DNA of 64,000 bases from Candidatus Falkowbacteria bacterium RIFOXYD12_FULL_34_57 (lineage in GTDB: Bacteria > Patescibacteriota > Patescibacteriia > Patescibacteriales > UBA12075): assembly GCA_001780285.1 (NCBI GenBank), contig MFGN01000007.1, positions 7,346 through 71,345 on the forward strand. Reading direction: 5' to 3'. Below, one piece after another: positions 26,159 through 46,466 of this stretch. Position 1 is the first letter of the stretch; the number at the start of each line of letters is the position of its first letter. A program made the translations under genes and the position numbers. The notes beneath the pieces were generated by a model. It ran no database searches and was not told the DNA's origin. It was given only the letters and a program-made list of their open reading frames with translations.

Positions 26159-26202
26159 TTTTATTTTTGAGAAATAATTTAAAAAAGGGAAAAAACAATA
26201 TT

Positions 26203-27285: not shown

Positions 27286-27321
27286 TTAATCCCAGGGAGT
27301 ATAATTAAAGGCTATTGTAAT

Positions 27322-27828
27322 ATGTTTTTTGCGAAATTAATAAGAATAATTAACCCGGAACATGTCCCAAGTAAACAAAGTAATTTCTTGGGATTTTCAA
27401 TAATAGAGGTATTAATTGTCGTTGCTATTTTTATTATCTTATCAGCTATTTCTTTGCCCTTTTACAACAATTTAAATATAGAGTTATTGGTTGATAAAAC
27501 CAGAACTGATATTGTTCAAACATTGCGCTTAATTAAAATTAAAAGTGAATCCCGGGTTAATAATTCTGCACATGGAGTTTATTTTGATGCAAATACCATG
27601 ACACTTTATCAGGGAAGCTCATATGAACAAAGAAACAATGATTACGATCAAGAGTTTTTAATAGATGATGTTTTGTTGGTGAATTACAACCTGTCTTCAA
27701 GTGATATTAATTTTTCTAAAGGACTTGGATTGCCGTCTGCTACAGGAACGATTCAAATTTTAAGTGATTTAATAGATGCCGCTACAACCATAAGTATAAA
27801 TAATTTAGGTGTTATTGATTTTGATTAA
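27322..27828 (+). CDS. Pseudopilin / minor pilin (GspH/FimT-like)
   Basis: Prepilin-type N-terminus ...FLG/FSIIEVLIVVAIFIILSAI. Confidence 0.6.
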   Translation: MFFAKLIRIINPEHVPSKQSNFLGFSIIEVLIVVAIFIILSAISLPFYNNLNIELLVDKTRTDIVQTLRLIKIKSESRVNNSAHGVYFDANTMTLYQGSSYEQRNNDYDQEFLIDDVLLVNYNLSSSDINFSKGLGLPSATGTIQILSDLIDAATTISINNLGVIDFD

Positions 27829-27837
27829 GCAAATAAG

Positions 27838-28797: not shown

Positions 28798-28943
28798 GTT
28801 TAGAAGGACATAAGATACAAATAGTTTGTATTTTAAAGATTTTTTATGTCTTGTATCCTTGCAATTTCCATCTTCGAAATTATTTATACTATATGTGTAT
28901 AACCAAAAAACAAAATAACGGATTAAAAATTTATTCAGGGAAT

Positions 28944-29426
28944 ATGGTATATTTAAATGGTTTCACTTTAGTGGAAGCTTTAATCTATACTGCAATTATT
29001 GCTATTGTTGCCTCTAGTTTTATTTCTTTTGGTATTTTAATTTTAGAATTGAGAAGTAAAAGTGTGGCTATAGGAGAAATTAATATCAATGCCCAGAGTG
29101 CCTTAAATATAATTTCTAGTAAAATAAAATTAGCAGAAAGTGTTGGTTTTCCAACCGTGGGAGCAACTAGCAGTATTCTAGTTTTGAATATGGTTGACGG
29201 CAGTACCACGACTATGGAAATTGTTGATAATATTTTAGTTATAAAAGAGGGGGGGGTACAAATAAATATTACCAATAACAATATTTTGATTTCAAATTTA
29301 GAGTTTGTGTATATATTTTCAGATGGAAACAGCGCATCTGTAAGAATTTATTTTAATATCGCCTATAATAGCGAAATGGAGAATTATCAAAAAAACATTC
29401 AAACTACTGTAAGTTTAAGAAGATAG
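28944..29426 (+). CDS. Pseudopilin / minor pilin
   Basis: MVYLNG/FTLVEALIYTAIIAIVASSF. I trimmed the start from the listed 28851. Confidence 0.6.
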   Translation: MVYLNGFTLVEALIYTAIIAIVASSFISFGILILELRSKSVAIGEININAQSALNIISSKIKLAESVGFPTVGATSSILVLNMVDGSTTTMEIVDNILVIKEGGVQINITNNNILISNLEFVYIFSDGNSASVRIYFNIAYNSEMENYQKNIQTTVSLRR

Positions 29427-29459
29427 ATTTTATCTCCAGTTTAAATTGTTTATAAAAAT

Positions 29460-29861
29460 ATGGTTTGTGTTTACAAGCAACAATCAGGAGTAGCCATGCT
29501 TTTAATAGTTGTAATTATTAGCGTGGTTTTATTGTTAACCATAAAAACAGTATCGTTCTTAGGTATTAGTAATGTGGAAATGGCGGGAATCTTTGACAAA
29601 GGCGACAATGTTTTGGTTTTTAGCGAGGGGTGTGTTGAAGAAGCTCTGCGCCGAATTCAAATAGATAATAGTTACACAGTTAGTAATTTTCCTTTGTCTA
29701 TTGGCTCGGAATCTTGTATAATAAGTGTAGAGGATAATATTGGTCAAAAAATTATTACTATAGTTGGAAATACCGATAATTATTATAAAAAAATCAGAGT
29801 AATTATTTCTATAGTTGGCGAAGAAATAGCGATTCAATCTTGGGAAGAATTAACAGAGTAG
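29460..29861 (+). CDS. Putative minor pilin (PilX-like, non-canonical N-terminus)
   Basis: QQSG/VAMLLIVVIISVVLLL hydrophobic N-helix. Position within the pilin gene run supports the call. Confidence 0.45.
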   Translation: MVCVYKQQSGVAMLLIVVIISVVLLLTIKTVSFLGISNVEMAGIFDKGDNVLVFSEGCVEEALRRIQIDNSYTVSNFPLSIGSESCIISVEDNIGQKIITIVGNTDNYYKKIRVIISIVGEEIAIQSWEELTE

Positions 29862-29886
29862 TTAAATTATTAATTGTTAATAAATC

Positions 29887-31017
29887 ATGTTTATTAAAAA
29901 ATCAGTGGGTTTGGATATATCTGATCACACCATAGAAGTTGCTGAGTTGAAAAAAAGTGGTAATAATATTAGATTATCTAATTTGGGGCGTGTTCAACTG
30001 GATAAGGGCGTTGTGGTAAATGGCCGCATAAGGAATAAAACAAAATTATCCGAAACTCTTAAAAATGTATTAAAAAGCACTCAGCCAAATGCCGTCAAAT
30101 CTGTTGATTTTGTTTTTGGTTTATCGGAAAGTTGTGTTTTTACGCATATTTTTAAAATAAAAAACACAAAAGAAGAAATGTTTGAGCAGGAAATTTTAAA
30201 AGAAATTAAAAACACCATCCCCATTGAAGCAAAAAGATTGCTTTATGATTACCGTATTTTTCAGCCCTATAATTACAATGTGTTCAACACATCTAATGCT
30301 GAGAAAAAAAAGGGCGATGAAGATATTTTTGTGCGCCTAGTGGCTGTAGAAAAAAATATAATTTTTGAATGGAATGATTTTTTTAAAGAGAATGGTCTAA
30401 ATATTGAGATATTTGACATTGAGAGTCTGGCTACTTTTAGGGGGATGTTTGATGATTTTCCTGAAAATCCTGTGTGTATCGTGGATATTGGCGCCAACAA
30501 AACTAAAATATCAATTTTTACATTATTTGGCCTGGAATATTCATTTTTATTAAGTATAGCGGGAAATGATTTTACTGATATTGTTTCTAAATATTTTAAA
30601 ATTGATTTTGAGAAAGCAGAAAAAATAAAGCAAGAGAAAGGTTTTGTTTATGAAAAAAAAGACAAAAAACTTGAAAATGAAATAAAGGAAAAATTTAAAG
30701 AAATAATCAATCAATTAAAGTTAAACATTGATTATTTTGAGGAAAAGAATAATCAGGCGGTAAAAAAGATAGTTTTTATCGGGGGAAGCAGTAAAATGAA
30801 CGGTTTGTTTGATTATTTAAATTTATTAGATTTGCAGCATGAGTTTCAATTAGGTTCTCATCAATATGAAAATGTAAACTTAGAGTATATTGAAGCAATT
30901 GGACTTAATTTTAGGAATTTGGAAAAAAGATGGAAAAAAACTGATCCATGCTTTATAATAAATAGTAAGAGTAATATAAAATTATTTGAAAAAGTAAAGT
31001 TATTTTTTAAACAATAA
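29887..31017 (+). CDS. pilM: Type IV pilus assembly protein PilM (actin-like ATPase fold)
   Basis: VGLDISDHTIEVAELKK..., CIVDIGANKTKISI, VFIGGSSKMNGL. Confidence 0.75.
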   Translation: MFIKKSVGLDISDHTIEVAELKKSGNNIRLSNLGRVQLDKGVVVNGRIRNKTKLSETLKNVLKSTQPNAVKSVDFVFGLSESCVFTHIFKIKNTKEEMFEQEILKEIKNTIPIEAKRLLYDYRIFQPYNYNVFNTSNAEKKKGDEDIFVRLVAVEKNIIFEWNDFFKENGLNIEIFDIESLATFRGMFDDFPENPVCIVDIGANKTKISIFTLFGLEYSFLLSIAGNDFTDIVSKYFKIDFEKAEKIKQEKGFVYEKKDKKLENEIKEKFKEIINQLKLNIDYFEEKNNQAVKKIVFIGGSSKMNGLFDYLNLLDLQHEFQLGSHQYENVNLEYIEAIGLNFRNLEKRWKKTDPCFIINSKSNIKLFEKVKLFFKQ

Positions 31018-31032
31018 TTTAAATAAAATTTT

Positions 31033-31539
31033 ATGAAAATAATTTGCAGAAAAAAAGGGTTTACCCTAATTGAACTTTTAATAGTAGTGGCTATTATTGC
31101 CATACTTGCCGCCCTGGCCTTTGTGGCCCTAAATCCATTAGAGCGTTTTCAGGATTCTTATAATGCCCAAAGATGGGCAGATGTGAATGCTATTATGCAG
31201 GCGATTAAGTTATATCAACTGGATAATAATGGGGTTTATATAAGCGATATTGATGATTTGACCGTCGGTTTATATTATCAAATCGGCAGCGGTGACAGTT
31301 GTAATGATACTTGTTCTAATCCAACAGTGGTTTTGCAAACCGAATGTTTGGACTTAGAAGGGTTGGTTGATGAGGGGTATTTGGCTAGCGTGCCAATTGA
31401 TCCAAATGATACTAATGCCGGAGGGGACGAAACTAGGTATTATTTTATGAAAGCTAGCACGGGAACAGTTACGGTAGGAGCTTGCAGCGAGCAGCTTGGT
31501 TCGGATGCAGTTATTCAAGCAATTTCTGTTTCTCGGTAA
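31033..31539 (+). CDS. Major type IV pilin candidate
   Basis: Canonical class III signal KKG/FTLIELLIVVAIIAILAALA. Cys pairs in the C-terminal half. Last gene of the pilus run. Confidence 0.8.
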   Translation: MKIICRKKGFTLIELLIVVAIIAILAALAFVALNPLERFQDSYNAQRWADVNAIMQAIKLYQLDNNGVYISDIDDLTVGLYYQIGSGDSCNDTCSNPTVVLQTECLDLEGLVDEGYLASVPIDPNDTNAGGDETRYYFMKASTGTVTVGACSEQLGSDAVIQAISVSR

Positions 31540-33332: not shown

Positions 33333-33383
33333 CATGATTACGCACTTGCATTTTTTAAAGTTTAATTTTAAAAAATAAAAAAG

Positions 33384-33408
33384 CCCTGATATTTTATCAG
33401 GGTTTTTT
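33384..33408. terminator. Bidirectional Rho-independent terminator
   Basis: CCCTGAT / loop ATTTT / ATCAGGG (33384-33402), with an A-tract before and a T-tract after. Confidence 0.8.
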
Positions 33409-33410
33409 AA

Positions 33411-33590
33411 ATCGTATAGGAATTTTCCCCCTAACCCCATATCTGTTATATGGCTTCATCTTATGGGGGATCTCCCGAAGGGGGATTATTTTTTACTATT
33501 TGAAAAGATAAAAGTGACTAATATTAAACATTCTGTAATTCACCACGCCAAAGGCGGACTTCAAAAAGCCTTTCAGGCTTTTCTTGAATT
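33411..33590 (+). repeat. Copy A of a structured intergenic repeat (candidate ncRNA or 3'-UTR module)
   Basis: Aligns with 44866-45088. The first ~85 nt differ at 3 positions. The middle is ~65-70% identical by eye. The blocks TTCACCACGCC and AAAAAGCyTTTCAGGCTTTTCTTGAATT are conserved. Contains the terminator-like hairpin AUCUCCC-GAA-GGGGGAU plus U-tract (33470-33494). Confidence 0.9.
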
Positions 33591-35198
33591 TTAATGAGTT
33601 TTATCCATACCCCCATATCTGCTATAGTTGCTACTTTCTTCTTTTTGTTTAACATCATAATTAATTTCCACGGAATGCGGCTTGGTCTGCATTTTTCTGG
33701 TTTCCAGTATTCCGTCGTTATTTTTATCAATGATGCTGATTCTTTTTTCTCCCTCGTCATAATCTATTCTAAAGGATTTTTTTTCAATTAAGTATTCAAA
33801 GATCATTCTTCTGGAGGCTTCATTGACAATGAATAGTTCCAAAACTTTTCCATTGATAACAATGTTGTCAAAAGAAAGTTTTTGGTATTCTTCATTTAGT
33901 CTGTAAAATTCTACCACCCTTCCCTTGATATCTCCGTATTTATTATCTTTTTTGTGGTAGCGCAATGCCATGTATTCAACTTGAAGGTTGTTCTTTTTAT
34001 CATGGTCATGATTTTGGGCAATTGATTCATCTTTGGCGTGTTCTCTTTTTTTGTATTTCACAAAAATTTCAAAATCACCATGTTGATAGTCAATCGGTTT
34101 ATCCCAACCTTTTTCATTAACCTCTTCTTGTGCTATCTCAATTTTTCCGGGTTGCGCAAAATAAGCTTTCATTTTTTGTTCATTGTAGGTGAATTTTTTT
34201 TCTTCTTTTCTGCCATTTATGGCCTTTTTTAAAGTCTCTTGTTGGTTTTTTTGAAAGTCTTCTATAGAGGAGATATATACTACACTAAATTCATCTGGTA
34301 TTCCAAATGACGGATCGCCTGGGCGATCTAGGTCTATAGACAGTATACTCATATTATCACTATCTATTTTGTGATAAATACTGATGATTGGATATTTTTC
34401 CGCTTTACCATCCGGATCTAGGCGGAAAATATGCAGATAGTCGCCCTTTTTGTCGCTATCAATATCAGTAATCGTGATTATTAGCTTTACTTTTTTTGTT
34501 TCCCAGATTTTTTTGTGGATTTTGTCTTTGTCAGGATAGTCGGGATTATCCACTTCTTCCATCCATGTTTTTTCAATGATTGCTTCTTCCAGTGTTTTAG
34601 CCCTTTTGTTTTCTAGCGCCCTCTTTACATATTCGGGTATAAAATTAGTTTCTTTTTCCAGATCGGTTCCGGGATACAGAACGACATTATCGTTCTTCCA
34701 TTTTTTAAAATTTTCCATTTGTTCTACATTAATGCCTATCATTTTGCACCATGCAATATATTGGCATATCCTTGTATACCGACTGGCATTTTCTTCTAGG
34801 ATTGTTTTTTGATATTCAATTCTCTTTTTGATTTCCGGATGATTTTTTAAATATTTTCCAATCTCGCTGGATGGATTTGTCTGGCGCGGGTCAAGCAGGG
34901 TGTTGGTGGTTTCCAGTAGGTCGTTTATTTGTTTCAGTTTTTCTTCTACTGAAAAAGCCTCATAATTAATGGCGTAGCCACTGTTGCCGTTTTCATCTAT
35001 TTCAATGATCATTTTTCCATTGGAATCTTTTCGAGCTTTATCTTTTAGTATAACTTGTGCCGCACCAGTGTCAGCCTCATATTCATTCATTCCATAAGTT
35101 TCTTTGAATATTTTTTTTGCCTCTTCTTCTAATGTTCCACAGGAACATAAACAAAAAAGCAATAGAAACGATAAGCTAAATATTTGGTATTTTTTCAT
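33591..35198 (-). CDS. Hypothetical lipoprotein (535 aa)
   Basis: Signal plus lipobox (LLLFCLCSCGT). K/E/D-rich. No family recognised. Confidence 0.6.
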   Translation of the reverse strand: MKKYQIFSLSFLLLFCLCSCGTLEEEAKKIFKETYGMNEYEADTGAAQVILKDKARKDSNGKMIIEIDENGNSGYAINYEAFSVEEKLKQINDLLETTNTLLDPRQTNPSSEIGKYLKNHPEIKKRIEYQKTILEENASRYTRICQYIAWCKMIGINVEQMENFKKWKNDNVVLYPGTDLEKETNFIPEYVKRALENKRAKTLEEAIIEKTWMEEVDNPDYPDKDKIHKKIWETKKVKLIITITDIDSDKKGDYLHIFRLDPDGKAEKYPIISIYHKIDSDNMSILSIDLDRPGDPSFGIPDEFSVVYISSIEDFQKNQQETLKKAINGRKEEKKFTYNEQKMKAYFAQPGKIEIAQEEVNEKGWDKPIDYQHGDFEIFVKYKKREHAKDESIAQNHDHDKKNNLQVEYMALRYHKKDNKYGDIKGRVVEFYRLNEEYQKLSFDNIVINGKVLELFIVNEASRRMIFEYLIEKKSFRIDYDEGEKRISIIDKNNDGILETRKMQTKPHSVEINYDVKQKEESSNYSRYGGMDKTH

Positions 35199-35199
35199 T

Positions 35200-36705
35200 T
35201 TATCCCTCCTCTCGCATCATTTCTACCATATCATAGACATGTATCTCTATTTGGGGAAGAGAAATAATCCCCTGATTTAGCATGTCGTTAAAGATGCGAA
35301 GCAAGTCTTCGTTGTTGCGATATGAAATATTAAGTATCCGGGCGCATGTTTTGGCCATGGAGATTATCATGTCTTGTTTTTTGGCTTCCTGTCTGTTTTT
35401 GTCTTTATCTTTGCCAAGATTGCTTTTAGCTTTTTTAAGAACTTCATTAATTATATTATCATTTTCCATGAGCCATTCTTGAGTTTTTTCCGGTCCGCCT
35501 AAAAGCGAGAAAGCATTTTTAGCATAAAAGAAAAGTTTATACCCACCATTTTTGTCCTGCATGTCGTCATTTAGACAGGCATAGAAAAATGGATTGGCAT
35601 AAAATTCCGGTAAAAATCTATCAAGGATTATTTCTCTGTAATTTGTTTTTATTTTTTCCGTTTCTTTCCAGTATTCATTAAATAATTCCGGATCAGTAAT
35701 TTTTATATTATTTACCGTAACATCAAACATATCATTCATGGCTTTTTGGATATCAAAACCGGTAGTCACCCGAGCAATTTTTCTTGTGGGAGCTTGATAG
35801 GGATGAAACATCATTGAATTTGCATAGCCATATCTCTCTATATATGACGCCCAAAGTTCTTTGTCAAAAAATGATCCAAGAAGCAGGCCCTGAAAGTGAA
35901 TATTTCTGTGCCACTGTTCATGAGTGGATGTGTCACCGAATTTATTATATTCATTAATCAGGGCAGCCGGATGATAATAGATGATGCCGCTGTCAGCGAG
36001 TGAAAGCCCGAATATTAAATAACCGTCGCCTCCCATGGGGGAGATAACCACTTCTTTGGGAATAAAGTCGGTAAACTTGGGTTTGGGTGGTATAAACATG
36101 AGCTCATCGGCCGGAATATTAGAATCAATTTTTGCTAATTTTTCTTCCAGAGAATCTCCTGCCTTCAATGTGCCAAAAATAATCAACTGTCCTTCTATTT
36201 TTTTAACTACTTTATCTCTGGCGTCTGTCGTAAGATTTGTTAAATACTCTGCACTTTCCACTATTTTGTTGGCCCATGTGAATTTTATTTTTTCAAATTC
36301 TTGAATGCTTACTTCTTGGGTTTGGCCATTGTGGAAATAAAATATTTTTTCGTTTAAGAAGCGGTATTCATTCATGGTGATAGGAAATTCGGCATTTCTA
36401 TTTGGAACTTTAACCGTAAAAGATATTCCTTGTCCCACCACATATAATGAACTTTCCCGATAATTGGAAAAAACATAGTTTTGGATATCTATCCATCTGG
36501 AAAATATTTCTGTTGGTTCAGCATCTTTTTTGATGCAGGGCCATTTTTTTACATATTCGGGGAGTTTTTCTTCAATAAAACGTTCCATATTGGGATGCGC
36601 TTCAATCACTACCGTTGAGTGCGGATCGTAAGATGGCGTAGCTGATGCTGCCGGGCAGATGATCCACAAGGCAAAAATAGCAGTAAGTATAAATAGTTTT
36701 CTCAT
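35200..36705 (-). CDS. Hypothetical secreted protein with an HExxH motif (possible zinc-dependent hydrolase)
   Basis: Signal peptide MRKLFILTAIFALWIICPAASA. THEQWHRNIH at aa 261-270 (nt 35908-35922 encode HEQWH). AGGAGG RBS upstream of the ATG at 36705. Confidence 0.6.
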   Translation of the reverse strand: MRKLFILTAIFALWIICPAASATPSYDPHSTVVIEAHPNMERFIEEKLPEYVKKWPCIKKDAEPTEIFSRWIDIQNYVFSNYRESSLYVVGQGISFTVKVPNRNAEFPITMNEYRFLNEKIFYFHNGQTQEVSIQEFEKIKFTWANKIVESAEYLTNLTTDARDKVVKKIEGQLIIFGTLKAGDSLEEKLAKIDSNIPADELMFIPPKPKFTDFIPKEVVISPMGGDGYLIFGLSLADSGIIYYHPAALINEYNKFGDTSTHEQWHRNIHFQGLLLGSFFDKELWASYIERYGYANSMMFHPYQAPTRKIARVTTGFDIQKAMNDMFDVTVNNIKITDPELFNEYWKETEKIKTNYREIILDRFLPEFYANPFFYACLNDDMQDKNGGYKLFFYAKNAFSLLGGPEKTQEWLMENDNIINEVLKKAKSNLGKDKDKNRQEAKKQDMIISMAKTCARILNISYRNNEDLLRIFNDMLNQGIISLPQIEIHVYDMVEMMREEG

Positions 36706-37054
36706 AACATACCTCCTGTTATTGAGTGGTTTTCCGGTCTTTTATTAAAAATCGGATTGGTTTTCAAGTTGGTTGGTTGATGGCTTGCGTTTTAAATCCT
36801 GTAATAATCATGAATTGGCTTTTGCCTCCGTTTCAAATCATTGATTTATATTAAATTGTCAAAGTCCAGAAATTTTTAAAATAAAACCTGAAACAAGAGT
36901 TTTTCCTCCTTTATTTCAGGTTGTTATAAATTTATTCTATTATATTAAATTTACCAACTTTAAGATAATGCGTCAATAGCTGAAAAGCAAATAAAACATA
37001 TATTGTTTTAATTTTATTTAAATTTTATCAGAATATAGGAATAATTTAATAGTG

Positions 37055-37083
37055 TTGATTTATCTCTTATTTTTTTATATAAT
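37055..37083 (+). promoter_or_regulatory. Sigma70-like promoter of the metK leader (-35 TTGATT, 17 bp, -10 TATAAT)
   Basis: TTGATT at 37055-37060 and TATAAT at 37078-37083. Confidence 0.5.
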
Positions 37084-37102
37084 TAAAACACAATTAAATA
37101 TA

Positions 37103-37275
37103 TTTATCATGATTGCGGTGAGAGATCTGGCTCTGCGACCCGCTGGCAACCATCTTTAAGAAAGTTTAAAGAAAGGTGCCCCATCCAGCCCTAAGAAGGG
37201 AGAGATAAAGGTCGATTTTTTATTGCGAATAAAAAAGTAAATCTTTCCCAAAATTTATATCAGGGAAAGTTTTTT
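37103..37275 (+). promoter_or_regulatory. SAM-I clan riboswitch (S-box or SAM-I/IV-like) with terminator expression platform
   Basis: P1 TTTATC (37103-37108) / GATAAA (37204-37209). Conserved cores GAGAGAUCUGGCUC...GCUGGCAACC and AAGGUGCCCCAUCC. Terminator CTTTCCC/GGGAAAG plus T6 (37243-37275). GGGAGAG (37198-37204) can alternatively pair with CTTTCCC as an antiterminator. Lies upstream of metK. Confidence 0.8.
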
Positions 37276-37295
37276 ATTATTTAAAAAATAAGAAT

Positions 37296-38342
37296 ATGAA
37301 TTATCAAACAAAAATTTGTACAGTAGAAAGCGTTACCTCTGGCCATCCGGACAAGGTATGCGATCAAATTTCTGACGCTGTTTTAGATGCGTGCCTAAAA
37401 GAAGATCCAAAGAGCCGCGTGGCGATTGAAACTTTCGGCGGCCATGGCCTAGTGGTGGTCGGCGGAGAGCTTACTACCAATGCCGATATCGACGCTAAAA
37501 AAATTGCCCAGGATGTTTATACCGGTATCGGTTATAATGAGCCGCTTGAGATTTTAACCAGAATAGTAAAACAATCGCCCGATATCAGCCAGGGGGTAGA
37601 CACCGGCGGCGCAGGGGATCAGGGCATTATGTACGGTTATGCTACGAACGAAACGAATGAATATCTGCCCGAGGGAGTTGTTCTTGCCCATAAATTAAGC
37701 CGCGGGCTTGAAGATTTGCGCAGGAGCGGGATAAACTGGCTAAGGCCGGACGGCAAATCACAGGTGACGCTTAAAGACGGCCGGGTAAAAACAGTCCTGA
37801 TAAGTACGCAGCACACCCAAGATGTTTCTCAGGAAGAGATAAAAAAAGTATTAACAGAAAAATTAATCAGGCCGATTATAAAAACTGAAGATATTGAGAT
37901 TTATGTAAATCCCACAGGCATGTTTTTGCAGGGCGGATTTGAGGCTGATACCGGTCTTACGGGGCGAAAATTAATGGTGGATACTTATGGCGGGCTTATT
38001 CCGCACGGCGGCGGATGCTTTTCGGGCAAAGATGCGACTAAGGTGGACCGCAGCGCCGCGTATATGTGCCGCTTTGCGGCTAAAAATATCGTAGCTAACG
38101 GTTTGGCTGATAAGTGCCTGGTGTCGGTTGCTTATGCTATCGGCATGGAAAAGCCATTGATGGTGGAAGCCGTGAATGAAAAAGGAGAAAGTTTGAGCGA
38201 GATTGTAAATAAAAATTTTGATTTCCGTCCCCCGGCAATTATTGAAAGACTTGATTTGCGCCGGCCAATATTTCAACAGACAGCCAGCTACGGGCATTTC
38301 GGCAAAGAGGGGCTGCCCTGGGAGGAGATGGTTGAAATATAA
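37296..38342 (+). CDS. metK: S-adenosylmethionine synthetase (compact bacterial type)
   Basis: ESVTSGHPDKVCDQISDAVLDA, GAGDQGIMYGYA, DTYGG..PHGGGCFSGKD.TKVDRSAAY. Confidence 0.95.
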   Translation: MNYQTKICTVESVTSGHPDKVCDQISDAVLDACLKEDPKSRVAIETFGGHGLVVVGGELTTNADIDAKKIAQDVYTGIGYNEPLEILTRIVKQSPDISQGVDTGGAGDQGIMYGYATNETNEYLPEGVVLAHKLSRGLEDLRRSGINWLRPDGKSQVTLKDGRVKTVLISTQHTQDVSQEEIKKVLTEKLIRPIIKTEDIEIYVNPTGMFLQGGFEADTGLTGRKLMVDTYGGLIPHGGGCFSGKDATKVDRSAAYMCRFAAKNIVANGLADKCLVSVAYAIGMEKPLMVEAVNEKGESLSEIVNKNFDFRPPAIIERLDLRRPIFQQTASYGHFGKEGLPWEEMVEI

Positions 38343-38420
38343 ATGAAATAAGTAATATTGAAGTGTTTAACCGTAAAAATAAAATGTTTAAAAGGTGAAA
38401 ACGTAAAATTAACATGGAAA

Positions 38421-38461
38421 ATACTAGAATTAATGCTAATATTAATTCTAGTATTTTTTTG
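38421..38461 (+). terminator. Rho-independent terminator after metK
   Basis: 14-bp stem ATACTAGAATTAAT / ATTAATTCTAGTAT with a 6-nt loop and T8. Confidence 0.85.
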
Positions 38462-38586
38462 TTTGCGTATTTTGGTGGACATAATATATTTTTTATGTTA
38501 AGTTTTATAAAATTTTAGGAGAAATTCATCAAAAACGCTCTTTAAAAATTATTTATAAATATATAACAAAACGGAGGTAATTTGCC

Positions 38587-40311
38587 ATGAAACGATTTTT
38601 TGTTTGTTTAAGTATTTTTTTGTTTGTTTTTTCAGGTATTGCTATTGCTGAAGAAAAAGCAAAAGTCCCCAATTTGAAGATACCATCAGCCGAGGTCTTA
38701 AAATCTGTTAATCAGGAATTGGTTACAGCTACAGTGGGAGATCCTAAAACTTTTAATCCAATCACTTCATCAGAAACATCTTCTTCGGCTATTTATGGTT
38801 ATGTATTTGAAGGTTTGATTGAACAAGATCCGATTACTTTGGAGTTTGAACCGAATTTAGCAAAAAGATGGGAAGTGGATAAAAGCGGTTTAATTTGGAC
38901 TTTTTATTTGCGTGATGATGTGAAGTGGAATGATGGTCAGCACAAATTTACCGCCAAAGATGTTTTGTTTACCTTAAATGCTATTTACGGCGTTCCTAAC
39001 GGTATGCAGGATATTTTAACGATTGATGGTAAAAAAATAGAAGCTAAAATTATTAATGATTTTACTATTCAGTTTATTTTACCAGTAAGATTTGCTCCAT
39101 TTTTAAGCGTAATGCAATGGCCTATTTTGCCGGAGTTTGTCCTGGGTGAGAGTTTGAAAAACGGTACTTTTGAAAGCCAGTGGAATATATCTACTAATCC
39201 TAAAAAACTTATTGGTACCGGACCCTATAAATTAGTTGAATATGAATCAACTCAACATGCTAAATATGAGCGCAATCCCCACTACTGGAAGAAAGATGAA
39301 AAGGGCAATAAATTACCATATATAGAAAAGAGAACTATTTTAATAGTTCAAGATGCCAATACTGCTTTTTTAAAATTTAAAAAAGGTGAAACTCATTTTT
39401 ACAGTCCGTCTCCGGAATATGTAGCGGAGTTGGAAGATAATCAAGATAAGTTAAAAATTGTGGTAAAAGAAATCGGAATTGGTCTTGGTGTGGAATTTTT
39501 AGTCTTTAATCGCAATCCTAAATATTACAAGAAAGAAGATAAGAAAACCAATCCAAAGTTATTGTGGTTTGAAGACTTGAATTTTCTTAAAGCCGTTAAC
39601 CATGCTATTGATAAGGAGAGTATTATTGTTTCAGTGCTTTACGGCATGGGTAAAATAGCACCGGCTATTATTGCTCCCAGTAATCACATTTTTACCAATA
39701 AGGATTTAAAGGATTATAAATATGATCCGGATTTAGCTGAAGAAATATTGGAAAAAGCGGGTTATATTGATCGTGATAATGATGGAATCAGGGAAGATGA
39801 AAATGGTAGTAAGTTGGAATTTGATTTATCAACCAATGCCGGTAATAATACCAGAGAAAAATTATGTTCCATAATCAAACAAGATTTAGAGGATATAGGA
39901 ATTAAAGTTAATTTTCGTCCGCTAGAATTTAATACTCTTGTTCAAAAGCTTATGGATAATTATGAGTGGGACGCGATTGTTATCGGGCTTACCGGTGGTT
40001 CAGAACCTCACAATGGCGCTAATGTTTATAAATCAAGCGGCAAATTGCATGTGTGGAATCCGGCACAGGAAAAACCAGCCACAAAATGGGAGGAGGAGCT
40101 GGATAGGCTTGTAAGTCAGGGCGCGCAAGAACTGGATTTGGAAAAAAGAATAAAGATCTACCACCATCTGCAAGAGATTTTGCATGAAAATTTACCATTC
40201 ATAGTTTTGCCGCGCAGCATCAGCTATACGGCTTACAATAAAAATATAGAAAATTATTTCTCAACAGTTTTCGGAACTTATAAATTAGAAAGAATTTTTT
40301 TAAATAAATAA
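38587..40311 (+). CDS. ABC transporter substrate-binding protein, family 5 (oligopeptide/dipeptide OppA/DppA-like)
   Basis: Signal peptide (not a lipobox). ...VGDPKTFNP..., ...GTGPYKLVEYE...RNPHYW... Confidence 0.85.
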   Translation: MKRFFVCLSIFLFVFSGIAIAEEKAKVPNLKIPSAEVLKSVNQELVTATVGDPKTFNPITSSETSSSAIYGYVFEGLIEQDPITLEFEPNLAKRWEVDKSGLIWTFYLRDDVKWNDGQHKFTAKDVLFTLNAIYGVPNGMQDILTIDGKKIEAKIINDFTIQFILPVRFAPFLSVMQWPILPEFVLGESLKNGTFESQWNISTNPKKLIGTGPYKLVEYESTQHAKYERNPHYWKKDEKGNKLPYIEKRTILIVQDANTAFLKFKKGETHFYSPSPEYVAELEDNQDKLKIVVKEIGIGLGVEFLVFNRNPKYYKKEDKKTNPKLLWFEDLNFLKAVNHAIDKESIIVSVLYGMGKIAPAIIAPSNHIFTNKDLKDYKYDPDLAEEILEKAGYIDRDNDGIREDENGSKLEFDLSTNAGNNTREKLCSIIKQDLEDIGIKVNFRPLEFNTLVQKLMDNYEWDAIVIGLTGGSEPHNGANVYKSSGKLHVWNPAQEKPATKWEEELDRLVSQGAQELDLEKRIKIYHHLQEILHENLPFIVLPRSISYTAYNKNIENYFSTVFGTYKLERIFLNK

Positions 40312-40323
40312 GCGCACACAAGC

Positions 40324-40349
40324 ATACCCTCAAAATCGAGGGTATTTTT
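40324..40349 (+). terminator. Intra-operon hairpin/terminator after the binding-protein gene
   Basis: ATACCCTC / loop AAAATC / GAGGGTAT plus TTTTA. A TTGACA box follows at ~40364. Confidence 0.6.
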
Positions 40350-40463
40350 ATTTGCTTTTTTTATTGACAAATAACTGTATTTTATGAGAATATATACCAC
40401 TACAGTTCTTTAAAATTTTAATTAAAATAAACAAATCTTGAACTTTTATAAGGAGAATCAGTT

Positions 40464-41441
40464 ATGAAGAGTTTTTTACTAAAAAGGTTGATACAAATCC
40501 CTTTTATTTTGTTATTAATTTCGTTTATGTCGTTTATGGTCTTGCAGCTGGCTCCTGGTGATTTTTTTACCGCCATGCAGATGAATCCGCAAATATCCGC
40601 GGAAACCATAGCTGAAATGAGTGCAAAGTATGGTTTTGATAAGCCTTTAATGGTGCAATACATTCTCTGGCTTAAAGGAATTGTATGCGGAGATTTTGGA
40701 CAAAGCCTGAGTTATCATGTATCAGTAGTGCAGTTAATTGGTTCCAGATTGGTCAGTACGGTAATTTTGAGTTTTTGTTCCATTTTATTCACTTGGGTAT
40801 TAGCTTTTCCATTGGGTGTTATTATCGCTCTCAAAGCCAACACAATTTTGGATAGGGGCTTATCATTTTTTGCTTTTTTGGGTATGAGTATGCCGTCATT
40901 CTTTTTTGCTTTTTTACTTTTGCTATTAGCTCTGCACACCGGATGGTTTCCGATTGGCGGAACTTTTTCTTCTGATTATTTTGATTTGTCTTTATGGGGA
41001 AAAATAATTGATCGAGGAAGGCATTTGGTAATTCCGGTACTTGTTTTAGGACTGGGCGGAATGGGATCGCTGATGCGCGTGATGCGTACTCAGGTATTAG
41101 AGATAGTAAACGCTGATTTTGTTAATGCTGCCAGAGCTAGAGGTTTATCTGAGTGGAGAGTGATACTGAAACACGTGGTACGCAATGCTATTAATCCGTT
41201 TGTAACCGGAATAGGTTATCTTTTTGGAGCATTAGTTAGCGGAGCAGCATTGGTGGAGATAGTGCTCAATCTTCAGGGACTTGGAACATTGGTTTTAACC
41301 GCAGTCCAATCTCAAGATCAGTTCGTAATCATGGGGGTGCTTTTGATCTCTGGATGCCTGCTCTTGGTGGGTGTATTAATCGCTGATATTCTGCTCACCT
41401 TGGTTGATCCTAGAATTACTTTCAAAAAGCTGGAGGGGTAA
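40464..41441 (+). CDS. Opp/Dpp ABC transporter permease (OppB-like)
   Basis: N-terminal LLKRLIQ..., six TM helices, EAA-loop region ..VNAARARGLSEWRVILKHVVRNA. Confidence 0.9.
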   Translation: MKSFLLKRLIQIPFILLLISFMSFMVLQLAPGDFFTAMQMNPQISAETIAEMSAKYGFDKPLMVQYILWLKGIVCGDFGQSLSYHVSVVQLIGSRLVSTVILSFCSILFTWVLAFPLGVIIALKANTILDRGLSFFAFLGMSMPSFFFAFLLLLLALHTGWFPIGGTFSSDYFDLSLWGKIIDRGRHLVIPVLVLGLGGMGSLMRVMRTQVLEIVNADFVNAARARGLSEWRVILKHVVRNAINPFVTGIGYLFGALVSGAALVEIVLNLQGLGTLVLTAVQSQDQFVIMGVLLISGCLLLVGVLIADILLTLVDPRITFKKLEG

Positions 41442-41442
41442 A

Positions 41443-42483
41443 ATGAAAGGAATATTGTCTTTATACAAACAAATGCACCTCACGGCTAAAATTAGTTTTT
41501 GGGGTATATTAATTCTTTATTCGGTAACTTTAATGGCGCCTATTCTGGCTCCCTATGATTATGCCGAGCAGCATCGCAAGCATCCACATGCACCGATTAC
41601 TAAAATTCATTTTATACATCAGGATGAAAATGGCAGTAAGATTGGATGGCCGTATGTATGTCAATACAAGTTAACAGATGTGAAAAGGCGTATCTATAAA
41701 GAAGATGTAAACAAGAAATACGCTATTCAATTTTGGACAGAAGATAATCGTTTATTCGGTACGGAAAAAAGAGGAAAAATATTTTTGCTCGGTACTGATT
41801 CTGTCGGTAGGGATATTTTTTCCCGCATACTTTACGGAGGAAGAATCAGTTTAACGATTCCTTTGGCCGGTGTGTTTATCAGTTTGTTTTTTGGCCTTTT
41901 GATTGGATCGGTATCCGGGTATTTCGGCGGATTGACCGATGATTTTGTTATGGGCATGTGTTTGATTATTATGTCTATCCCCGGATTTCCGTTATTGATT
42001 GTGCTCGCCGGGGTAATTCCGTCCGGAGTGTCATCGGCCATGACATTTTTAATGATTGTGGTAATTATGAGTTTTATCGGCTGGGCAGGGCTCGCACGCG
42101 TAATACGAGGAATGACCGCATCTACCAGAGAGCAGGATTTTGTTACGGCCAGTAAGGCTCTGGGCGCTTCTCATTGGTGGATTATTACCCGCCATATTCT
42201 TCCCTCTGTTTTGAATTATGCAATTATTTCTGCTTCAATGAGTATTCCCGGGTATATTATGGGAGAATCGGGACTCTCTATGATCGGTCTTGGAATTCAG
42301 GAGCCGCAAGCCAGTTGGGGGAATATGCTGTCAGAAGCTATGAAAAATGTGCAGATATTAAGCAGCCAGCCGACGCTGCTGGTTCCGGGGTTAATGATTT
42401 TGTTTACGGTGATGTATTTTAATTTTCTGGGAGATTTTCTGCGCGATTTTTATGATCCTCGAACAAAAAGAAGCCTAGGATGA
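41443..42483 (+). CDS. Opp/Dpp ABC transporter permease (OppC-like)
   Basis: LGTDSVGRDIFSRILYGGR, ...FVTASKALGASHWWIITRHILPS. The ATG at 41443 follows the upstream stop by 1 nt; the listed 41404 start is rejected. Confidence 0.9.
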   Translation: MKGILSLYKQMHLTAKISFWGILILYSVTLMAPILAPYDYAEQHRKHPHAPITKIHFIHQDENGSKIGWPYVCQYKLTDVKRRIYKEDVNKKYAIQFWTEDNRLFGTEKRGKIFLLGTDSVGRDIFSRILYGGRISLTIPLAGVFISLFFGLLIGSVSGYFGGLTDDFVMGMCLIIMSIPGFPLLIVLAGVIPSGVSSAMTFLMIVVIMSFIGWAGLARVIRGMTASTREQDFVTASKALGASHWWIITRHILPSVLNYAIISASMSIPGYIMGESGLSMIGLGIQEPQASWGNMLSEAMKNVQILSSQPTLLVPGLMILFTVMYFNFLGDFLRDFYDPRTKRSLG

Positions 42484-42497
42484 TATAAGGAGATAAA

Positions 42498-43463
42498 ATG
42501 TTATTACAAGTAAAAGATTTAAAAACACATTTTTTTATACAGGGAAAAACCGTAAAAGCGGTTGATGGAGTCAGTTTTGATATAGATAAGGGAGAAATTT
42601 TGGGCATAATCGGAGAATCTGGTTGCGGTAAAAGTGTATCGGCTATGTCTATTCTGAATTTGGTTCCGAAATCTGCCGGAAGGGTAGTGGGCGGAGAGAT
42701 ATGGTATAAAGACAAAAATTTGCTTGATTTTTCACCAAAAGAGATGCAAAAAATCCGAGGAAATGAAATTTCTTTGATTTTTCAGGAGCCGATTCAGGCC
42801 CTTGATCCCGTTTATACTATCGGCAACCACCTTTATGAAGCTTTGAGCGCTCATCAAAAGATATCCAAAGAAGAAGCGCGGGTTAAAGCTGTTGAATTGT
42901 TGCGATTAGTTGATATTCCTTCTCCGGAAATACGCATGGGGGAATATGCCCACCAATTTTCTGGAGGTATGGCCCAAAGAGCCATGATTGCTATAGCACT
43001 AGCTTGTAATCCTCATCTTTTGATTGCTGATGAACCGACCACTGCCTTGGATGTAACCATTCAGGCCGGTATTTTAGACTTGATTGTTGACTTGAGAAAC
43101 AGGCTTGATCTTGCAATTATCTTGATTACCCATAATCTGGGGATTGTAGCTCAAAACGCTGATCGTATCTGTATTATGTATGCAGGGCGAATTGTAGAAC
43201 AGGGAAGAACCGCAGATATTTTTAAAAATCCCAGCCACCCCTACACACAGGAATTGCTTCGAGCGGTCCCCAGGCTTGATTTGGATAATCAAAAATTACA
43301 AGAAATAGAAGGTACGGTTCCCAATTTGGCAGATTTACCAGAGGGGTGTAAATTTCATCCTCGTTGCCGCTTTAAAACCGATAAATGCACAAAAGAAGAG
43401 CCACTATTTTTGAAAGTTGGAGAAAAGCATCAAGTGAAATGTTTTTTAAGGGGGCGCGAATGA
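42498..43463 (+). CDS. Opp/Dpp ABC transporter ATPase (OppD-like)
   Basis: Walker A GESGCGKS, signature FSGGMAQR, Walker B LLIADEPTTALD, and a C-terminal Cys-rich oligopeptide tail. Confidence 0.9.
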   Translation: MLLQVKDLKTHFFIQGKTVKAVDGVSFDIDKGEILGIIGESGCGKSVSAMSILNLVPKSAGRVVGGEIWYKDKNLLDFSPKEMQKIRGNEISLIFQEPIQALDPVYTIGNHLYEALSAHQKISKEEARVKAVELLRLVDIPSPEIRMGEYAHQFSGGMAQRAMIAIALACNPHLLIADEPTTALDVTIQAGILDLIVDLRNRLDLAIILITHNLGIVAQNADRICIMYAGRIVEQGRTADIFKNPSHPYTQELLRAVPRLDLDNQKLQEIEGTVPNLADLPEGCKFHPRCRFKTDKCTKEEPLFLKVGEKHQVKCFLRGRE

Positions 43464-44410
43464 GTTTGCTTAAAGTAGAAAATTTAAAGAAATATTTTTC
43501 TTTAAATAAGGGATGGTTTAAAAAAGGAAAACTCTTAAAAGCTGTTGATGATATCAGTTTTGCATTAAATGAAAGAGAAACCCTGGGAATAGTAGGGGAG
43601 TCTGGGTGCGGTAAAACCACTGCAGCTAAAACTATTTTAAGGCTGTATGATCTAACCGATGGTCGTGTTGAATTTCAAGGAAGAAATCTCCATGATTTAT
43701 CCCGAAAAGAGACCAAAGAAGCCAGAAAAGATATGCAAATTATTTTTCAAAATCCGGTTTCCTCATTGGATCCCAGAATGAAAATTAGGGATATTGTCGG
43801 TGAGGGGCTCGATATTCATGGTTTAACCGAAAATAGAGCAGAAAAAATAGTATCGGTTTTGGAAAGGGTCGGTATTTCTTCCGACTACATAGATCGTTAT
43901 CCGCATGAATTTTCCGGCGGACAAAGACAAAGAATCGGTATTGCCCGTGCATTAATACTTGAACCAAAAATGATAATAGCTGATGAGCCGGTATCTGCTT
44001 TGGATGTGTCTATGCAGGCCCAGATTATTAATCTACTGAAAGAACTTCAAGAAGAGTATAACATGGCTTATTTATTGATTGCACATGACCTGAGTGTTGT
44101 GAAGCATGTTAGCCATAGGATAGCAGTAATGTATCTGGGAAAGATTGTGGAACTTGCAGAGGCTAAAGATCTTTGCAATAACCCGCTTCACCCTTATACC
44201 CAGGCCCTTTTGTCAGCAGTACCTGTTCCTAATCCGGAAATAAAAACCAAAAAATTGATATTGAAAGGCGATATCCCCAGTCCGCTTAATCCGCCCGCAG
44301 GGTGTCGTTTTCATACGCGTTGTCCATTGGCAAAAAATATATGCACAAGAGAAGAACCACAAAGACAAGAAATAAATAATCATCAGGTTTTTTGCCATTT
44401 ATTAAGTTAG
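43460..44410 (+). CDS. Opp/Dpp ABC transporter ATPase (OppF-like)
   Basis: GESGCGKTT, FSGGQRQRIGIARAL, IIADEPVSALD. ATGA overlap with the oppD-like stop; the listed 43385 start is rejected. Confidence 0.9.
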   Translation: MSLLKVENLKKYFSLNKGWFKKGKLLKAVDDISFALNERETLGIVGESGCGKTTAAKTILRLYDLTDGRVEFQGRNLHDLSRKETKEARKDMQIIFQNPVSSLDPRMKIRDIVGEGLDIHGLTENRAEKIVSVLERVGISSDYIDRYPHEFSGGQRQRIGIARALILEPKMIIADEPVSALDVSMQAQIINLLKELQEEYNMAYLLIAHDLSVVKHVSHRIAVMYLGKIVELAEAKDLCNNPLHPYTQALLSAVPVPNPEIKTKKLILKGDIPSPLNPPAGCRFHTRCPLAKNICTREEPQRQEINNHQVFCHLLS

Positions 44411-44436
44411 AATTATCAAAATAAAGGAGAAATATT

Positions 44437-44829
44437 TTGGAGGACAAAAAAGAAAATATAAAAAAAGAATTAGGTAAAAATACGGCATTATTGGTTTATA
44501 TTCTGCAAGGACTTGCTTTTTTTTCCGTTTTGACGGTCATTGTCGGCGCGATTATTAATTATGTGAAAATGAAAGATGTGCGAGGCACTTGGCTGGAATC
44601 TCATTTCCACTGGCAAATCAGCACATTTTGGTGGGGATTTATCCTATGGCCATTAATCGGATTTTTTCTTTTGATATATCCTTCAGGAATTGCAGTTATA
44701 ATATCTGTTGATTTAATATCTGTTATAGCGATTATTTTATCGGGATTAATATTTTTTGCAGATACAATTTGGGTGATTTATAGAATTATAAAAGGATTGA
44801 TTTTTTTGAACAAAGAAAAAGAAATATAA
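44437..44829 (+). CDS. Small integral membrane protein (DUF4870-like, tentative)
   Basis: Three to four TM helices. ...LESHFHWQISTFWWGF... motif. TTG start. Confidence 0.5.
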   Translation: MEDKKENIKKELGKNTALLVYILQGLAFFSVLTVIVGAIINYVKMKDVRGTWLESHFHWQISTFWWGFILWPLIGFFLLIYPSGIAVIISVDLISVIAIILSGLIFFADTIWVIYRIIKGLIFLNKEKEI

Positions 44830-44836
44830 TAAAAAA

Positions 44837-44865
44837 ACGCTTTGAAATAATTCAAAGCGTTTTTT
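44837..44865. terminator. Bidirectional Rho-independent terminator
   Basis: ACGCTTTGAA / loop ATAA / TTCAAAGCGT (44837-44860), with an A-tract before and T5 after. Confidence 0.8.
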
Positions 44866-45088
44866 ATCGCATAGGAATTTTCCCCCTAATCCCATATCTG
44901 TTATATGGCTTCATCTTGTGGGGGATCTCCCGAAGGGGGATTATTTTTTACTATTTATCAAGAGTAAAAGTGTTTAATATTTAGATACTCCATTATTCAC
45001 CACGCCCCCGTCTGGGGCGGGCATGGAAAGGCGCTGTGTCCCGCCTCAGGCGGAGACTTTAAAAAGCTTTTCAGGCTTTTCTTGAATT
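44866..45088 (+). repeat. Copy B of the structured intergenic repeat, carrying a 42-nt GC-rich insertion
   Basis: Same orientation as copy A. The hairpin-plus-U-tract lies at 44925-44949. The insertion at 45007-45048 replaces the AAA loop of copy A's CGCC/GGCG hairpin. Confidence 0.9.
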
Positions 45089-45110: not shown

Positions 45111-46466
45111 TTAATTTAAATTTTCATAAAAATAAACAATAGTTTCTATCCCTTTAAACAATCTGTCTATTCCGAAATGCTCATTGGGGGAATGGATGGC
45201 ATCTGTATCAAGCCCAAAGCCCAGCAACAGCGGAGTTGCGCCCAGCACCTCATTAAAAATATTAGTAATCGGTATGCTGGCGCTGCCGCGAACCGACAGC
45301 GGTTTTTTGCCAAAAGCTTTTTTATAAGCATCGCTTGCCGCTTTGTATTCCTGAGAGTTGGTGGGTGTGAGCAAGGCAGCAGAAGCGTGAAAAGTTTTAA
45401 TATTCACTCTCACTGATTTTGGGGCAAGAGATTTAAAATATTTAATAAAATTTTTTTTGATTATTTTAGGATTTTGACCAGGAACAAGGCGCATAGAAAT
45501 TTTAGCATGAGCTTTAGATGGAATTACTGTTTTTGATCCCTCTTCTATGTATCCGCCCCAGACGCCATTTACATCCAGGGACGGCCTTGTACACAATCTT
45601 TCCATGGTACTGAATCCGTCTTCGCCCTCTATATCCGTTATGTTAATTTGTTTTTTGTATTTTTTTAAATTAAAGGGAATCTTAGTGATTTCATTTTTTT
45701 CTTTCAAAGAAAGCTTTACCCCATCATAAAAACCGGGGATAGTTATTTTTTTATTTTTATTTTTTAATTTTGCAATCATTTCGCAGAGTGTATTAATTGG
45801 ATTAGCTACAGCTCCGCCATAAAGCCCAGAATGCAGATCCCTATTTGGACCTATTATTTCAACCTCAAAGTAAGCCAGACCTCGAAGTCCGGTAGTAATT
45901 GAGGGGGTGTTTTCATTTAGTATTTCAGTGTCAGATATAAGAGTTGTATCAGCTTTTAATTTCTGCTTGTGGTCGCGAATGAATTTTTCCAGATTAACAG
46001 AACTGATTTCCTCTTCTCCCTCTATGACGAATTTTATATTGGTATGCATTTTTTTTTCTTTTAAAAGATACTCAAAAGCTTTAATATGGATAAAGACCTG
46101 TCCTTTGTCGTCAGATGATCCACGAGCGTAGATTTTATTATTTTTTATAATTGGCTTGAACGGAGGGTTTATCCATAGGTTTATCGGATCTACGGGTTGG
46201 ACATCATAGTGTCCGTAAACAAGCACAGTCGGCAGCTTTTTATTAATTATTTTTTCGCCATAAACAATGGGATGTCCGGAGGTGGAAAAAGTTTTTATAT
46301 TTTGGCCTCCTGCTTCTTTTAATTTGTCCGCGACAAATTTAGCGGTTTTAGCGACATCTTTTTTATATTTTACTTGCGCGCTAACCGATGGAATACTTAA
46401 AAATTCCAATAGTTCACCTAATATTCTTTTTTTGTTTTGTTTGAGGTATGATTTTATATTTGTCAT
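45111..46466 (-). CDS. M20-family metallopeptidase (dipeptidase/deacylase-like)
   Basis: VYGHYDVQP, ARGSSDDKGQ, FVIEGEEEISS, ...HSPNEH... Confidence 0.8.
   Translation of the reverse strand: MTNIKSYLKQNKKRILGELLEFLSIPSVSAQVKYKKDVAKTAKFVADKLKEAGGQNIKTFSTSGHPIVYGEKIINKKLPTVLVYGHYDVQPVDPINLWINPPFKPIIKNNKIYARGSSDDKGQVFIHIKAFEYLLKEKKMHTNIKFVIEGEEEISSVNLEKFIRDHKQKLKADTTLISDTEILNENTPSITTGLRGLAYFEVEIIGPNRDLHSGLYGGAVANPINTLCEMIAKLKNKNKKITIPGFYDGVKLSLKEKNEITKIPFNLKKYKKQINITDIEGEDGFSTMERLCTRPSLDVNGVWGGYIEEGSKTVIPSKAHAKISMRLVPGQNPKIIKKNFIKYFKSLAPKSVRVNIKTFHASAALLTPTNSQEYKAASDAYKKAFGKKPLSVRGSASIPITNIFNEVLGATPLLLGFGLDTDAIHSPNEHFGIDRLFKGIETIVYFYENLN

Follow-up and report, generated by a model that had tools for sequence, protein, structure and literature searches.

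A lineage-specific family of small repeats beside intrinsic terminators in a Candidatus Falkowbacteria population

Results

Two intergenic copies belong to a dispersed repeat family

The window analyzed here, a stretch of 64,000 nucleotides of contig MFGN01000007.1, lies on an 82-kb scaffold from Candidatus Falkowbacteria bacterium RIFOXY*_FULL_34, a member of the candidate phyla radiation (CPR) from the Rifle aquifer with a GC content of ~34%. It contains two direct copies, A and B, of a hairpin-rich intergenic element, and we found that they are two members of a dispersed family with at least eight distinct copies, the other six being located at other sites. Each of the eight starts 0–2 nt after the T-run of a different terminator composed of an A-run, a hairpin and a T-run, and in all eight the same end of the element faces this T-run. 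Our preferred explanation, to which we assign a probability of about 0.6, is that A and B belong to a lineage-specific family of small, non-coding, non-autonomous interspersed repeats that insert beside terminators. The two copies of the window are:

33411..33590, plus strand: copy A of the repeat, 180 nt, a subfamily with diverged middle and without the GC-rich palindrome insertion (nhmmer E = 3.6e-53)
44866..45088, plus strand: copy B of the repeat, 223 nt, the common subfamily (nhmmer E = 1.5e-64)

A previous interpretation of this DNA, made from the letters alone and referred to below as the sequence-only reading, had described the pair as two copies of a structured element in the same orientation. 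Our alignment of 33411–33590 with 44866–45088 confirms this, and their similarity is far beyond chance. The 5′ parts are near-identical, as claimed (96.7% identity over the first 91 nt, blastn E = 1e-40, with substitutions at 33415, 33435 and 33463), and the last 34 nt are 94% identical. Both short blocks named as conserved, TTCACCACGCC and AAAAAGCyTTTCAGGCTTTTCTTGAATT, are present in A and B, and the hairpin reported as expanded in copy B indeed contains an extra GC-rich segment of ~42 nt. The middle is diverged as described, but its identity had been set slightly too low: instead of 65–70%, A and B share ~80% when aligned (44/55 positions plus two gaps). The description of a repeated, hairpin-rich, non-coding intergenic element with a highly conserved 5′ module, variable linkers and a GC-rich hairpin of variable length was thus borne out. 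A third intact copy was not found in the window by repeat scan, BLAST or nhmmer.

The search for further copies that had been suggested in the sequence-only reading was rewarded with six beyond A and B. A 20-mer from the conserved core was searched against metagenome contigs and gave six real loci plus two chance matches. L004 and L007 represent a single locus, leaving L002, L003, L004, L005 and L008, and BLAST revealed a second, more diverged copy at L004 (the two copies are termed L004a and L004b). The chance matches, L001 and L006, lie inside GC-rich coding sequence and were rejected. Since one of the proteins encoded at L004 shows 100% identity to A2331_03200 of the Falkowbacteria organism of the window, the copy-bearing loci appear to be other regions of the same genome or population, which for the loci besides L004 is by extension from this one. 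Three short-read (Logan) contigs, L013 (window 33558–44900), L014 and L023, end within copies, which is the behavior expected of a genomic repeat.

Outside this population, the family gave no match in 185,579 GTDB species genomes (two patterns), in IMG/VR (three patterns) or, by BLAST, in phage and plasmid collections. In the nearest relative found, with 63% protein identity, the 21.8 kb surrounding an orthologue contained no copy, and nhmmer detected no further diverged copies over all fetched loci. The best reading of this distribution is a lineage-specific repeat family of one Candidatus Falkowbacteria population.

The segment between A and B is ordinary housekeeping DNA

The sequence-only reading had A and B bracketing an 11-kb segment and possibly mediating its deletion or duplication. 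In the explanation considered here, the direct repeats would be the ends of a mobile or recombining unit, such as a genomic island or a substrate for excision or duplication. Direct repeats of ~90 nt with 97% identity, 11.4 kb apart, could in principle recombine homologously. However, between the copies we find two lineage-specific proteins, metK behind an S-adenosylmethionine (SAM) riboswitch, an opp-type ABC transporter and a small DUF4870-like membrane protein, which is housekeeping content with no integrase or other mobility gene. The GC content of the segment is within the range of the remaining window, and the repeat also occurs at six other unrelated sites. Every assembly covering the region (the NCBI/ENA scaffold and two JGI metagenomes) has the same arrangement and 100% identical sequence, with no deletion or circular junction among them. 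The bracketing claim is not supported: the segment is ordinary housekeeping DNA without the mark of a genomic island, we infer that the spacing of A and B is incidental, and a mobile or recombining 11-kb unit is very improbable.

The same assemblies bear on the concern that the copies are artefacts of assembly or binning, produced by chimeric joins or by the copying of a contaminant into contigs. The DNA comes from a metagenome-assembled genome, repeats are prone to misassembly, and short-read contigs do end inside copies. Yet both copies are spanned, with 100% identity, by the independent assemblies, other copies are spanned in contigs from other samples, and the copies differ from each other by substitutions and indels in the way of real paralogues. 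We give this explanation the least credit of all.

All copies abut host terminators

The host sequences directly upstream of the two window copies are:

33377..33410, unstranded: host two-way intrinsic terminator of the CAP-domain gene, consisting of A-run, hairpin (33384–33402) and T-run; dG –16.9 kcal/mol; copy A lies directly 3′
44832..44865, unstranded: host two-way intrinsic terminator of the DUF4870-like 130-aa gene at the end of the opp operon, with a 15-bp stem; dG –17.0 kcal/mol; copy B lies directly 3′

In line with the gene context given by the sequence-only reading, A and B are each flanked on one side by such a two-way terminator (hairpins 33384–33402 and 44832–44865) and on the other by the end of a minus-strand gene, with stop codons at 33591 and 45111. 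The terminator at 33377–33410 is located outside the repeat, is unlike the hairpins upstream of the other seven copies and is the presumed insertion target of copy A. All eight upstream host hairpins differ in sequence and length, with dG values from –10 to –24 kcal/mol. What remains constant is the position of a T-run next to the left end of the element; in five of the eight copies this left end comes after TTTTAT. Because terminator-adjacent spots make up only ~0.2% of the strand positions in the window, as estimated by a lenient scan, their occurrence at eight out of eight copies cannot be due to chance.

The genes around the copies have little in common. Four copies lie between convergent and three between tandem genes; the remaining one, L004a, is located between a minus-strand gene and that gene's own terminator. 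The neighbors encode unrelated products: a CAP-domain protein, the M20 dipeptidase, a thymidine kinase, RadC, a PfkB kinase, ABC transporters and a P-type ATPase (the latter identified by eye from its translation alone). Orientation of the element relative to GC skew is concordant in 6/8 copies, which is not significant and is confounded with gene direction.

As an alternative, the sequence-only reading had offered a shared 3′-untranslated region (UTR) or terminator module of the minus-strand genes that would stabilize or terminate their transcripts. The window copies are indeed only 1 and 23 nt away from minus-strand stop codons, the terminal hairpin of the element can terminate that strand, and a minus-strand gene end is also found at a distance of 5–47 nt at L003, L008 and L004a. 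Against this, the adjoining minus-strand genes, including the two of the window, are unrelated (a protein without Pfam match, an M20 peptidase, a thymidine kinase and a phosphatase-like protein), and at L002, L004b and L005 the next gene has the same direction as the element, so that no minus-strand gene end adjoins these three copies. The constant junction is on the opposite side, against the terminator of the upstream gene, and use as a terminator would follow from insertion without giving the origin of the element. Unrelated neighbors and varied gene arrangements thus rule out a shared 3′-UTR of particular genes, and we consider a common 3′-UTR or terminator module improbable as an account of the family.

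A conserved core, a variable middle and a terminal hairpin

The copies range in size from about 115 to 225 bp and are built from the following parts, given here for A and B:

33411..33494, plus strand: 5′ core of copy A, 84 nt, with the hairpin CCATAT/ATATGG (33437–33453), a terminator-like hairpin (33469–33487) and a T-run (33489–33494); 94–98% identity to the other seven copies
44866..44949, plus strand: 5′ core of copy B, with a terminator-like hairpin (44924–44942)
45008..45053, unstranded: GC-rich insertion in copy B, two palindromic units (CCGCCTNRGGCGG-like) 18 nt apart
33564..33582, unstranded: 3′-terminal two-way hairpin of copy A, AAAAGCCT-TTC-AGGCTTTT, 8 nt from the stop codon of the 535-aa minus-strand gene
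45062..45080, unstranded: 3′-terminal hairpin of copy B, AAAAGCTT-TTC-AGGCTTTT, 30 nt before the stop codon of the M20 dipeptidase gene

The 5′ core of 84 nt (ATCGTATAGG...GGGGGATTATTTTTT) is 93–100% identical among all copies, and the left end of the element starts with AUCGUAUAGG. The core contains two C5 and two G5 tracts that could pair in alternative ways. A terminator-like hairpin GATCTCCC-GAA-GGGGGATT followed by a T-run had been noted before and is present at the expected position in A and B. The CCCCAU/AUGGGG helix proposed alongside it can be drawn and is kept in all copies through G-U pairs, but folding programs prefer the CCAUAU/AUAUGG hairpin (33437–33453), with which it overlaps and is hence mutually exclusive.

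The middle of the element is nearly identical among six copies. In copy A, identity to the others is 96–98% in the core but reaches only 73–83% in the middle, a contrast which points to modular subfamilies or to stronger constraint on the core. The GC-rich palindromic unit (about CCGCCTNRGGCGG) occurs zero to two times per copy, being present in B, L003, L005 and L008, in a genome with a GC content of 34%, and could be a mini-repeat in its own right that is carried inside the larger element.

The terminal hairpin is flanked by A and T runs and is followed by CTTGA in four copies. Judged by this arrangement, it could terminate transcription in both directions, and the terminal hairpins of A and B probably terminate the adjoining minus-strand genes. 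That of copy A was scored as terminator-like on the plus strand only; we call it two-way based on a minus-strand T-run read directly from the sequence.

Derivatives and a decayed copy are consistent with repeated insertion

Two copies are shortened. In L002, the first 103 nt are joined straight to a terminal TCAGGATTTTCT, which matches the 3′ end of the element at 11/12 positions, so this copy reads as an internal deletion that retains both ends. L004a is truncated on its 3′ side. A further remnant is located next to copy A:

33596..33626, plus strand: decayed second repeat copy to the right of copy A, with 25/31 nt identical to element positions 10–40

Its local alignment score of 32 compares with a maximum of 28 among 2967 random windows, and nhmmer gives only E = 2.1. 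We take the remnant to be an older copy. It is now contained in the final 12 codons of the 535-aa lipoprotein-like gene (33591–35198, minus strand), so that repeat sequence may have lengthened the C-terminus of this protein or taken its place. The order of terminator, intact copy and decayed copy is the expected result of repeated insertion directly after the T-run.

No evidence for a known RNA or a coding function

The sequence-only reading had seen in the conservation pattern the hallmarks of structured RNA paralogues. According to this alternative, as considered here, the copies would be functional non-coding RNA modules whose dispersal is secondary, giving rise either to a plus-strand read-through RNA of ~85 nt ended by the core terminator, or to a minus-strand RNA of ~100 nt that starts inside the element and has its 3′ end at the host two-way terminator. 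It overlaps with insertion beside terminators as the preferred explanation, because mobile repeats are often transcribed. Several features speak for it: the limits of the conserved core are exactly the host T-run on one side and the end of the core's own hairpin and T-run on the other, it is more conserved than the middle in copy A, and two alternative C5/G5 pairings are possible. Moreover, both variable positions of the CCCCAU/AUGGGG helix stay paired by G-U on the plus strand, and the minus strand of copy B carries a weak promoter-like site (TTTACT-17-AATAAT) that faces the host terminator.

Direct comparisons do not favor such modules. The Rfam scan that had been proposed agreed with the absence of a known RNA family: with Rfam 15, the element has no match at gathering score and nothing credible at E values up to 10. 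The best sub-threshold scores over A and B were 29–30 bits versus thresholds of 47–54 and aligned mainly to terminators. A tRNA or tmRNA-like gene was not found. Alignment folds of the eight copies, which are too similar to test covariation, contained no compensatory pair on either strand, and the predicted fold is no more stable than that of shuffled sequence (z = –1.35 for the plus and –0.26 for the minus strand). The G-U pairs from which a plus-strand RNA had been argued are real, but they carry little weight, since they amount to two one-sided transitions and about one in four such cases would by chance fit either the one strand or the other. In the 3′ hairpin, as read from the alignment, substitutions favor different strands in different copies, two the plus and one the minus strand.

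Nor is there a conserved plus-strand promoter, as conservation begins 0–2 nt after the host T-run, and the promoter-like site on the minus strand is absent from copy A and as frequent in shuffled sequence. Two reading frames were considered and rejected: a plus-strand frame of 43 codons from one JGI annotation, whose start ATG is GTG in copy B followed by an early stop, and a minus-strand frame of 16 codons with a frameshift in L004a and a different end in copy A. On the basis of the sequence, an RNA function of the element is possible, and we regard RNA modules as an unlikely explanation of the family.

Other genes and features of the surrounding DNA

The SAM riboswitch (RF00162, 37101–37211, plus strand, 57.4 bits, E = 1.2e-10), located upstream of metK (37296–38342), is the only match in the window at Rfam 15 gathering score. 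The remaining window genes are of the housekeeping type and include a type IV pilus, two-component systems, glycosyltransferases and the start of a ribosomal protein cluster; no mobility genes were detected by Pfam annotation of the window genes. The pilus genes form a type IV pilus or competence-like cluster at 24467–31539 (plus strand) with a T2SSE/MshEN ATPase, PilM and prepilin-type proteins carrying an N-terminal methylation motif.

The M20 dipeptidase gene next to copy B (45111–46466, minus strand) has two near-identical relatives at 92–93%; its other best matches are Bacteroidota proteins at ~60–62% and one Falkowbacteria protein at 61%. This match pattern hints at a possible gene transfer between phyla. 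An A-rich stretch of 34 nt is 88% identical between 2167–2200, at the 3′ end of an open reading frame (1730–2194), and 44446–44479, at the 5′ end of the 130-aa gene, and is probably a low-complexity coincidence. Near the repeat copy at L003, positions 1623–6151 encode a Fic/DOC protein, a topoisomerase zinc-ribbon protein, an Mrr-like restriction endonuclease, a DpnI-like methyl-dependent endonuclease and an HNH endonuclease, which are defense-type genes.

Discussion

How the copies could have arisen

We propose that the copies would have arisen by orientation-specific insertion into the hairpin and T-tract at gene ends, possibly at a T-run followed by AT, by means of an enzyme that would be encoded elsewhere in the genome. 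Insertion behind a gene would leave the termination of both neighbors undisturbed, because the element carries terminators facing both ways, and such harmless insertion would account for its persistence despite the very compact genome. The 5′ core could be constant since it would be recognized, as DNA or as RNA, by the mobilizing machinery.

A number of observations weigh against this proposal. No terminal inverted repeats link the ends of copy B or L005, which contain only internal hairpins. Flanking duplications are suggestive at best: TTTTTAT is found on both sides of L003 and TTTTGTT(T)AT on both sides of L004b, and there is no consistent duplication in the four CTTGA-type copies (A, B, L005 and L008). 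An empty site was not found, and the close relatives in the databases are from the same population only. In this search, the M20 homologues at 92–93% had no contig on record and the 130-aa neighbor had no close relative on a usable contig; the Falkowbacteria M20 homologue with 61% identity has a different gene order, as does the ABC-transporter relative with 63% identity, which also lacks a copy of the repeat. Pfam annotation of the genes in the window and in L002–L005, L008 and L022, ~150 kb altogether, revealed no transposase, reverse transcriptase, integrase or HUH enzyme. In a compact genome, selection alone would favor survivors behind genes, and active targeting is the less compelling for it, although selection for harmless sites does not explain the nucleotide-precise junction. 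Finally, an 84-nt core that hardly varies and whose end coincides exactly with its own terminator also resembles an RNA unit, for which a host-beneficial role is possible.

A bolder version of the insertion model is that the family represents a gene-less mobile element of a new kind, which would read the structure of intrinsic terminators (hairpin and T-tract) by means of an unrelated core of ~84 nt and would be mobilized in trans, possibly by an RNA or single-strand DNA intermediate. New copies would enter directly behind the terminator and push older ones outward, a notion that derives from the decayed copy beside copy A. We hold this version to be doubtful.

Implications

For annotation, these results remove a false lead, as the 11-kb segment is no island and A and B are no special pair. 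CPR bacteria are usually described as having very small, compact genomes with few recognizable mobile elements. A repeat that is present at eight or more sites, always exactly behind a terminator, illustrates one way in which selfish DNA can persist in such a genome: the element settles past the point at which transcription stops, and it comes with terminators of its own for either strand. If insertion is indeed targeted, the family would be a second system, unrelated to group IIC introns, that reads terminator structure, in which case it would be worth finding its mobilizing enzyme. For metagenomics, the repeat is relevant because it systematically breaks short-read assemblies of this population.

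Comparison with known systems

By analogy, the closest behavioral counterpart of the Falkowbacteria element would be SPRITE of Streptococcus pneumoniae, and the closest positional one the group IIC intron. SPRITE is a terminator-like repeat of ~105 bp (2011, PMC3049150). Both are small, AT-rich, non-coding interspersed repeats with a structure like that of intrinsic terminators (PMC3049150). Both are close to gene 3′ ends and enriched between convergent genes, lack convincing terminal inverted repeats, an established target duplication or a matching transposase, are confined to a single lineage and were possibly co-opted as terminators. With its terminator-like hairpin and T-tract near gene 3′ ends, the Falkowbacteria element thus belongs to a SPRITE-like class, which is a descriptive class and not a sequence family. 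It differs in being modular (an 84-nt core, a variable middle and a terminal hairpin) and up to 223 nt long, and in having several short hairpins instead of the one long 18-bp duplex of SPRITE. It also abuts a pre-existing host terminator in 8/8 copies, which is not reported for SPRITE.

Group IIC introns are, to our knowledge, the only well-known class of mobile elements that target terminator structure rather than sequence. The 5′ consensus of group II introns is GUGYG, whereas the element starts with AUCGUAUAGG and has no intron-like 5′ end. These introns are typically found in fixed orientation just downstream of terminator motifs, in which Ts come after an inverted repeat (Toor et al. 2006, PMC1702495), and this location just 3′ of an inverted repeat and Ts is shared by all eight copies of the element. 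In contrast to the introns, it shows no match to domain V/VI or any other group II family of Rfam, even at E values up to 10; none of the copies contains a reading frame, and no reverse transcriptase domain was found among the genes of the ~150 kb examined. With 0.1–0.2 kb, it is also much smaller than an intron of ~0.7–2 kb.

Miniature inverted-repeat transposable elements, or MITEs, and MITE-like repeats such as Correia/nemis, RUP and bcr1 (PMC3184786) resemble the element in being multicopy, intergenic, non-coding repeats of less than 300 bp that are predicted to fold, form subfamilies, have internal-deletion derivatives and are presumably mobilized in trans. Classical MITEs have terminal inverted repeats and target duplications of fixed length (PMC3184786). 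The element is small (below about 400 bp), multicopy and without a transposase gene, as expected of a MITE, but it lacks terminal inverted repeats and its duplications are inconsistent. We rejected classical MITE membership because the inverted repeats are missing.

Elements of the IS200/IS605 type have neither inverted repeats nor duplications, carry hairpins near both ends and insert orientation-specifically, so that a short target is located immediately 5′ of the left end. In their small derivatives, the imperfect hairpins near the two ends are similar and are recognized by one Y1 transposase. The lack of terminal inverted repeats, hairpins near the ends and the fixed orientation are shared by the Falkowbacteria element. 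Its left end always comes after a T-run, a possible target that is inseparable from targeting of the whole terminator. Its left hairpin, CCATAT-CTGTT-ATATGG, is unrelated to the right one, AAAAGCCT-TTC-AGGCTTTT, and this absence of matching end hairpins led us to reject derivation from IS200/IS605. In addition, neither a TnpA nor a TnpB gene was detected in the DNA examined, Rfam gave no match to IS605-associated RNAs, and orientation relative to GC skew is not significantly biased (6/8).

Repetitive extragenic palindromes (REPs) are palindromes of 20–40 bp, most of them with a GTAG or CGTC tag at one end (PMC3733652). REPs and the bacterial interspersed mosaic elements (BIMEs) resemble the element in their intergenic location at gene 3′ ends and their variable modules, and its GC-rich palindromes are REP-like in size, but its conserved unit is a non-palindromic core of 84 nt. 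Taken together, these comparisons place the element as a new lineage-specific family of terminator-adjacent interspersed repeats, a variation on a kind of small bacterial repeat already known.

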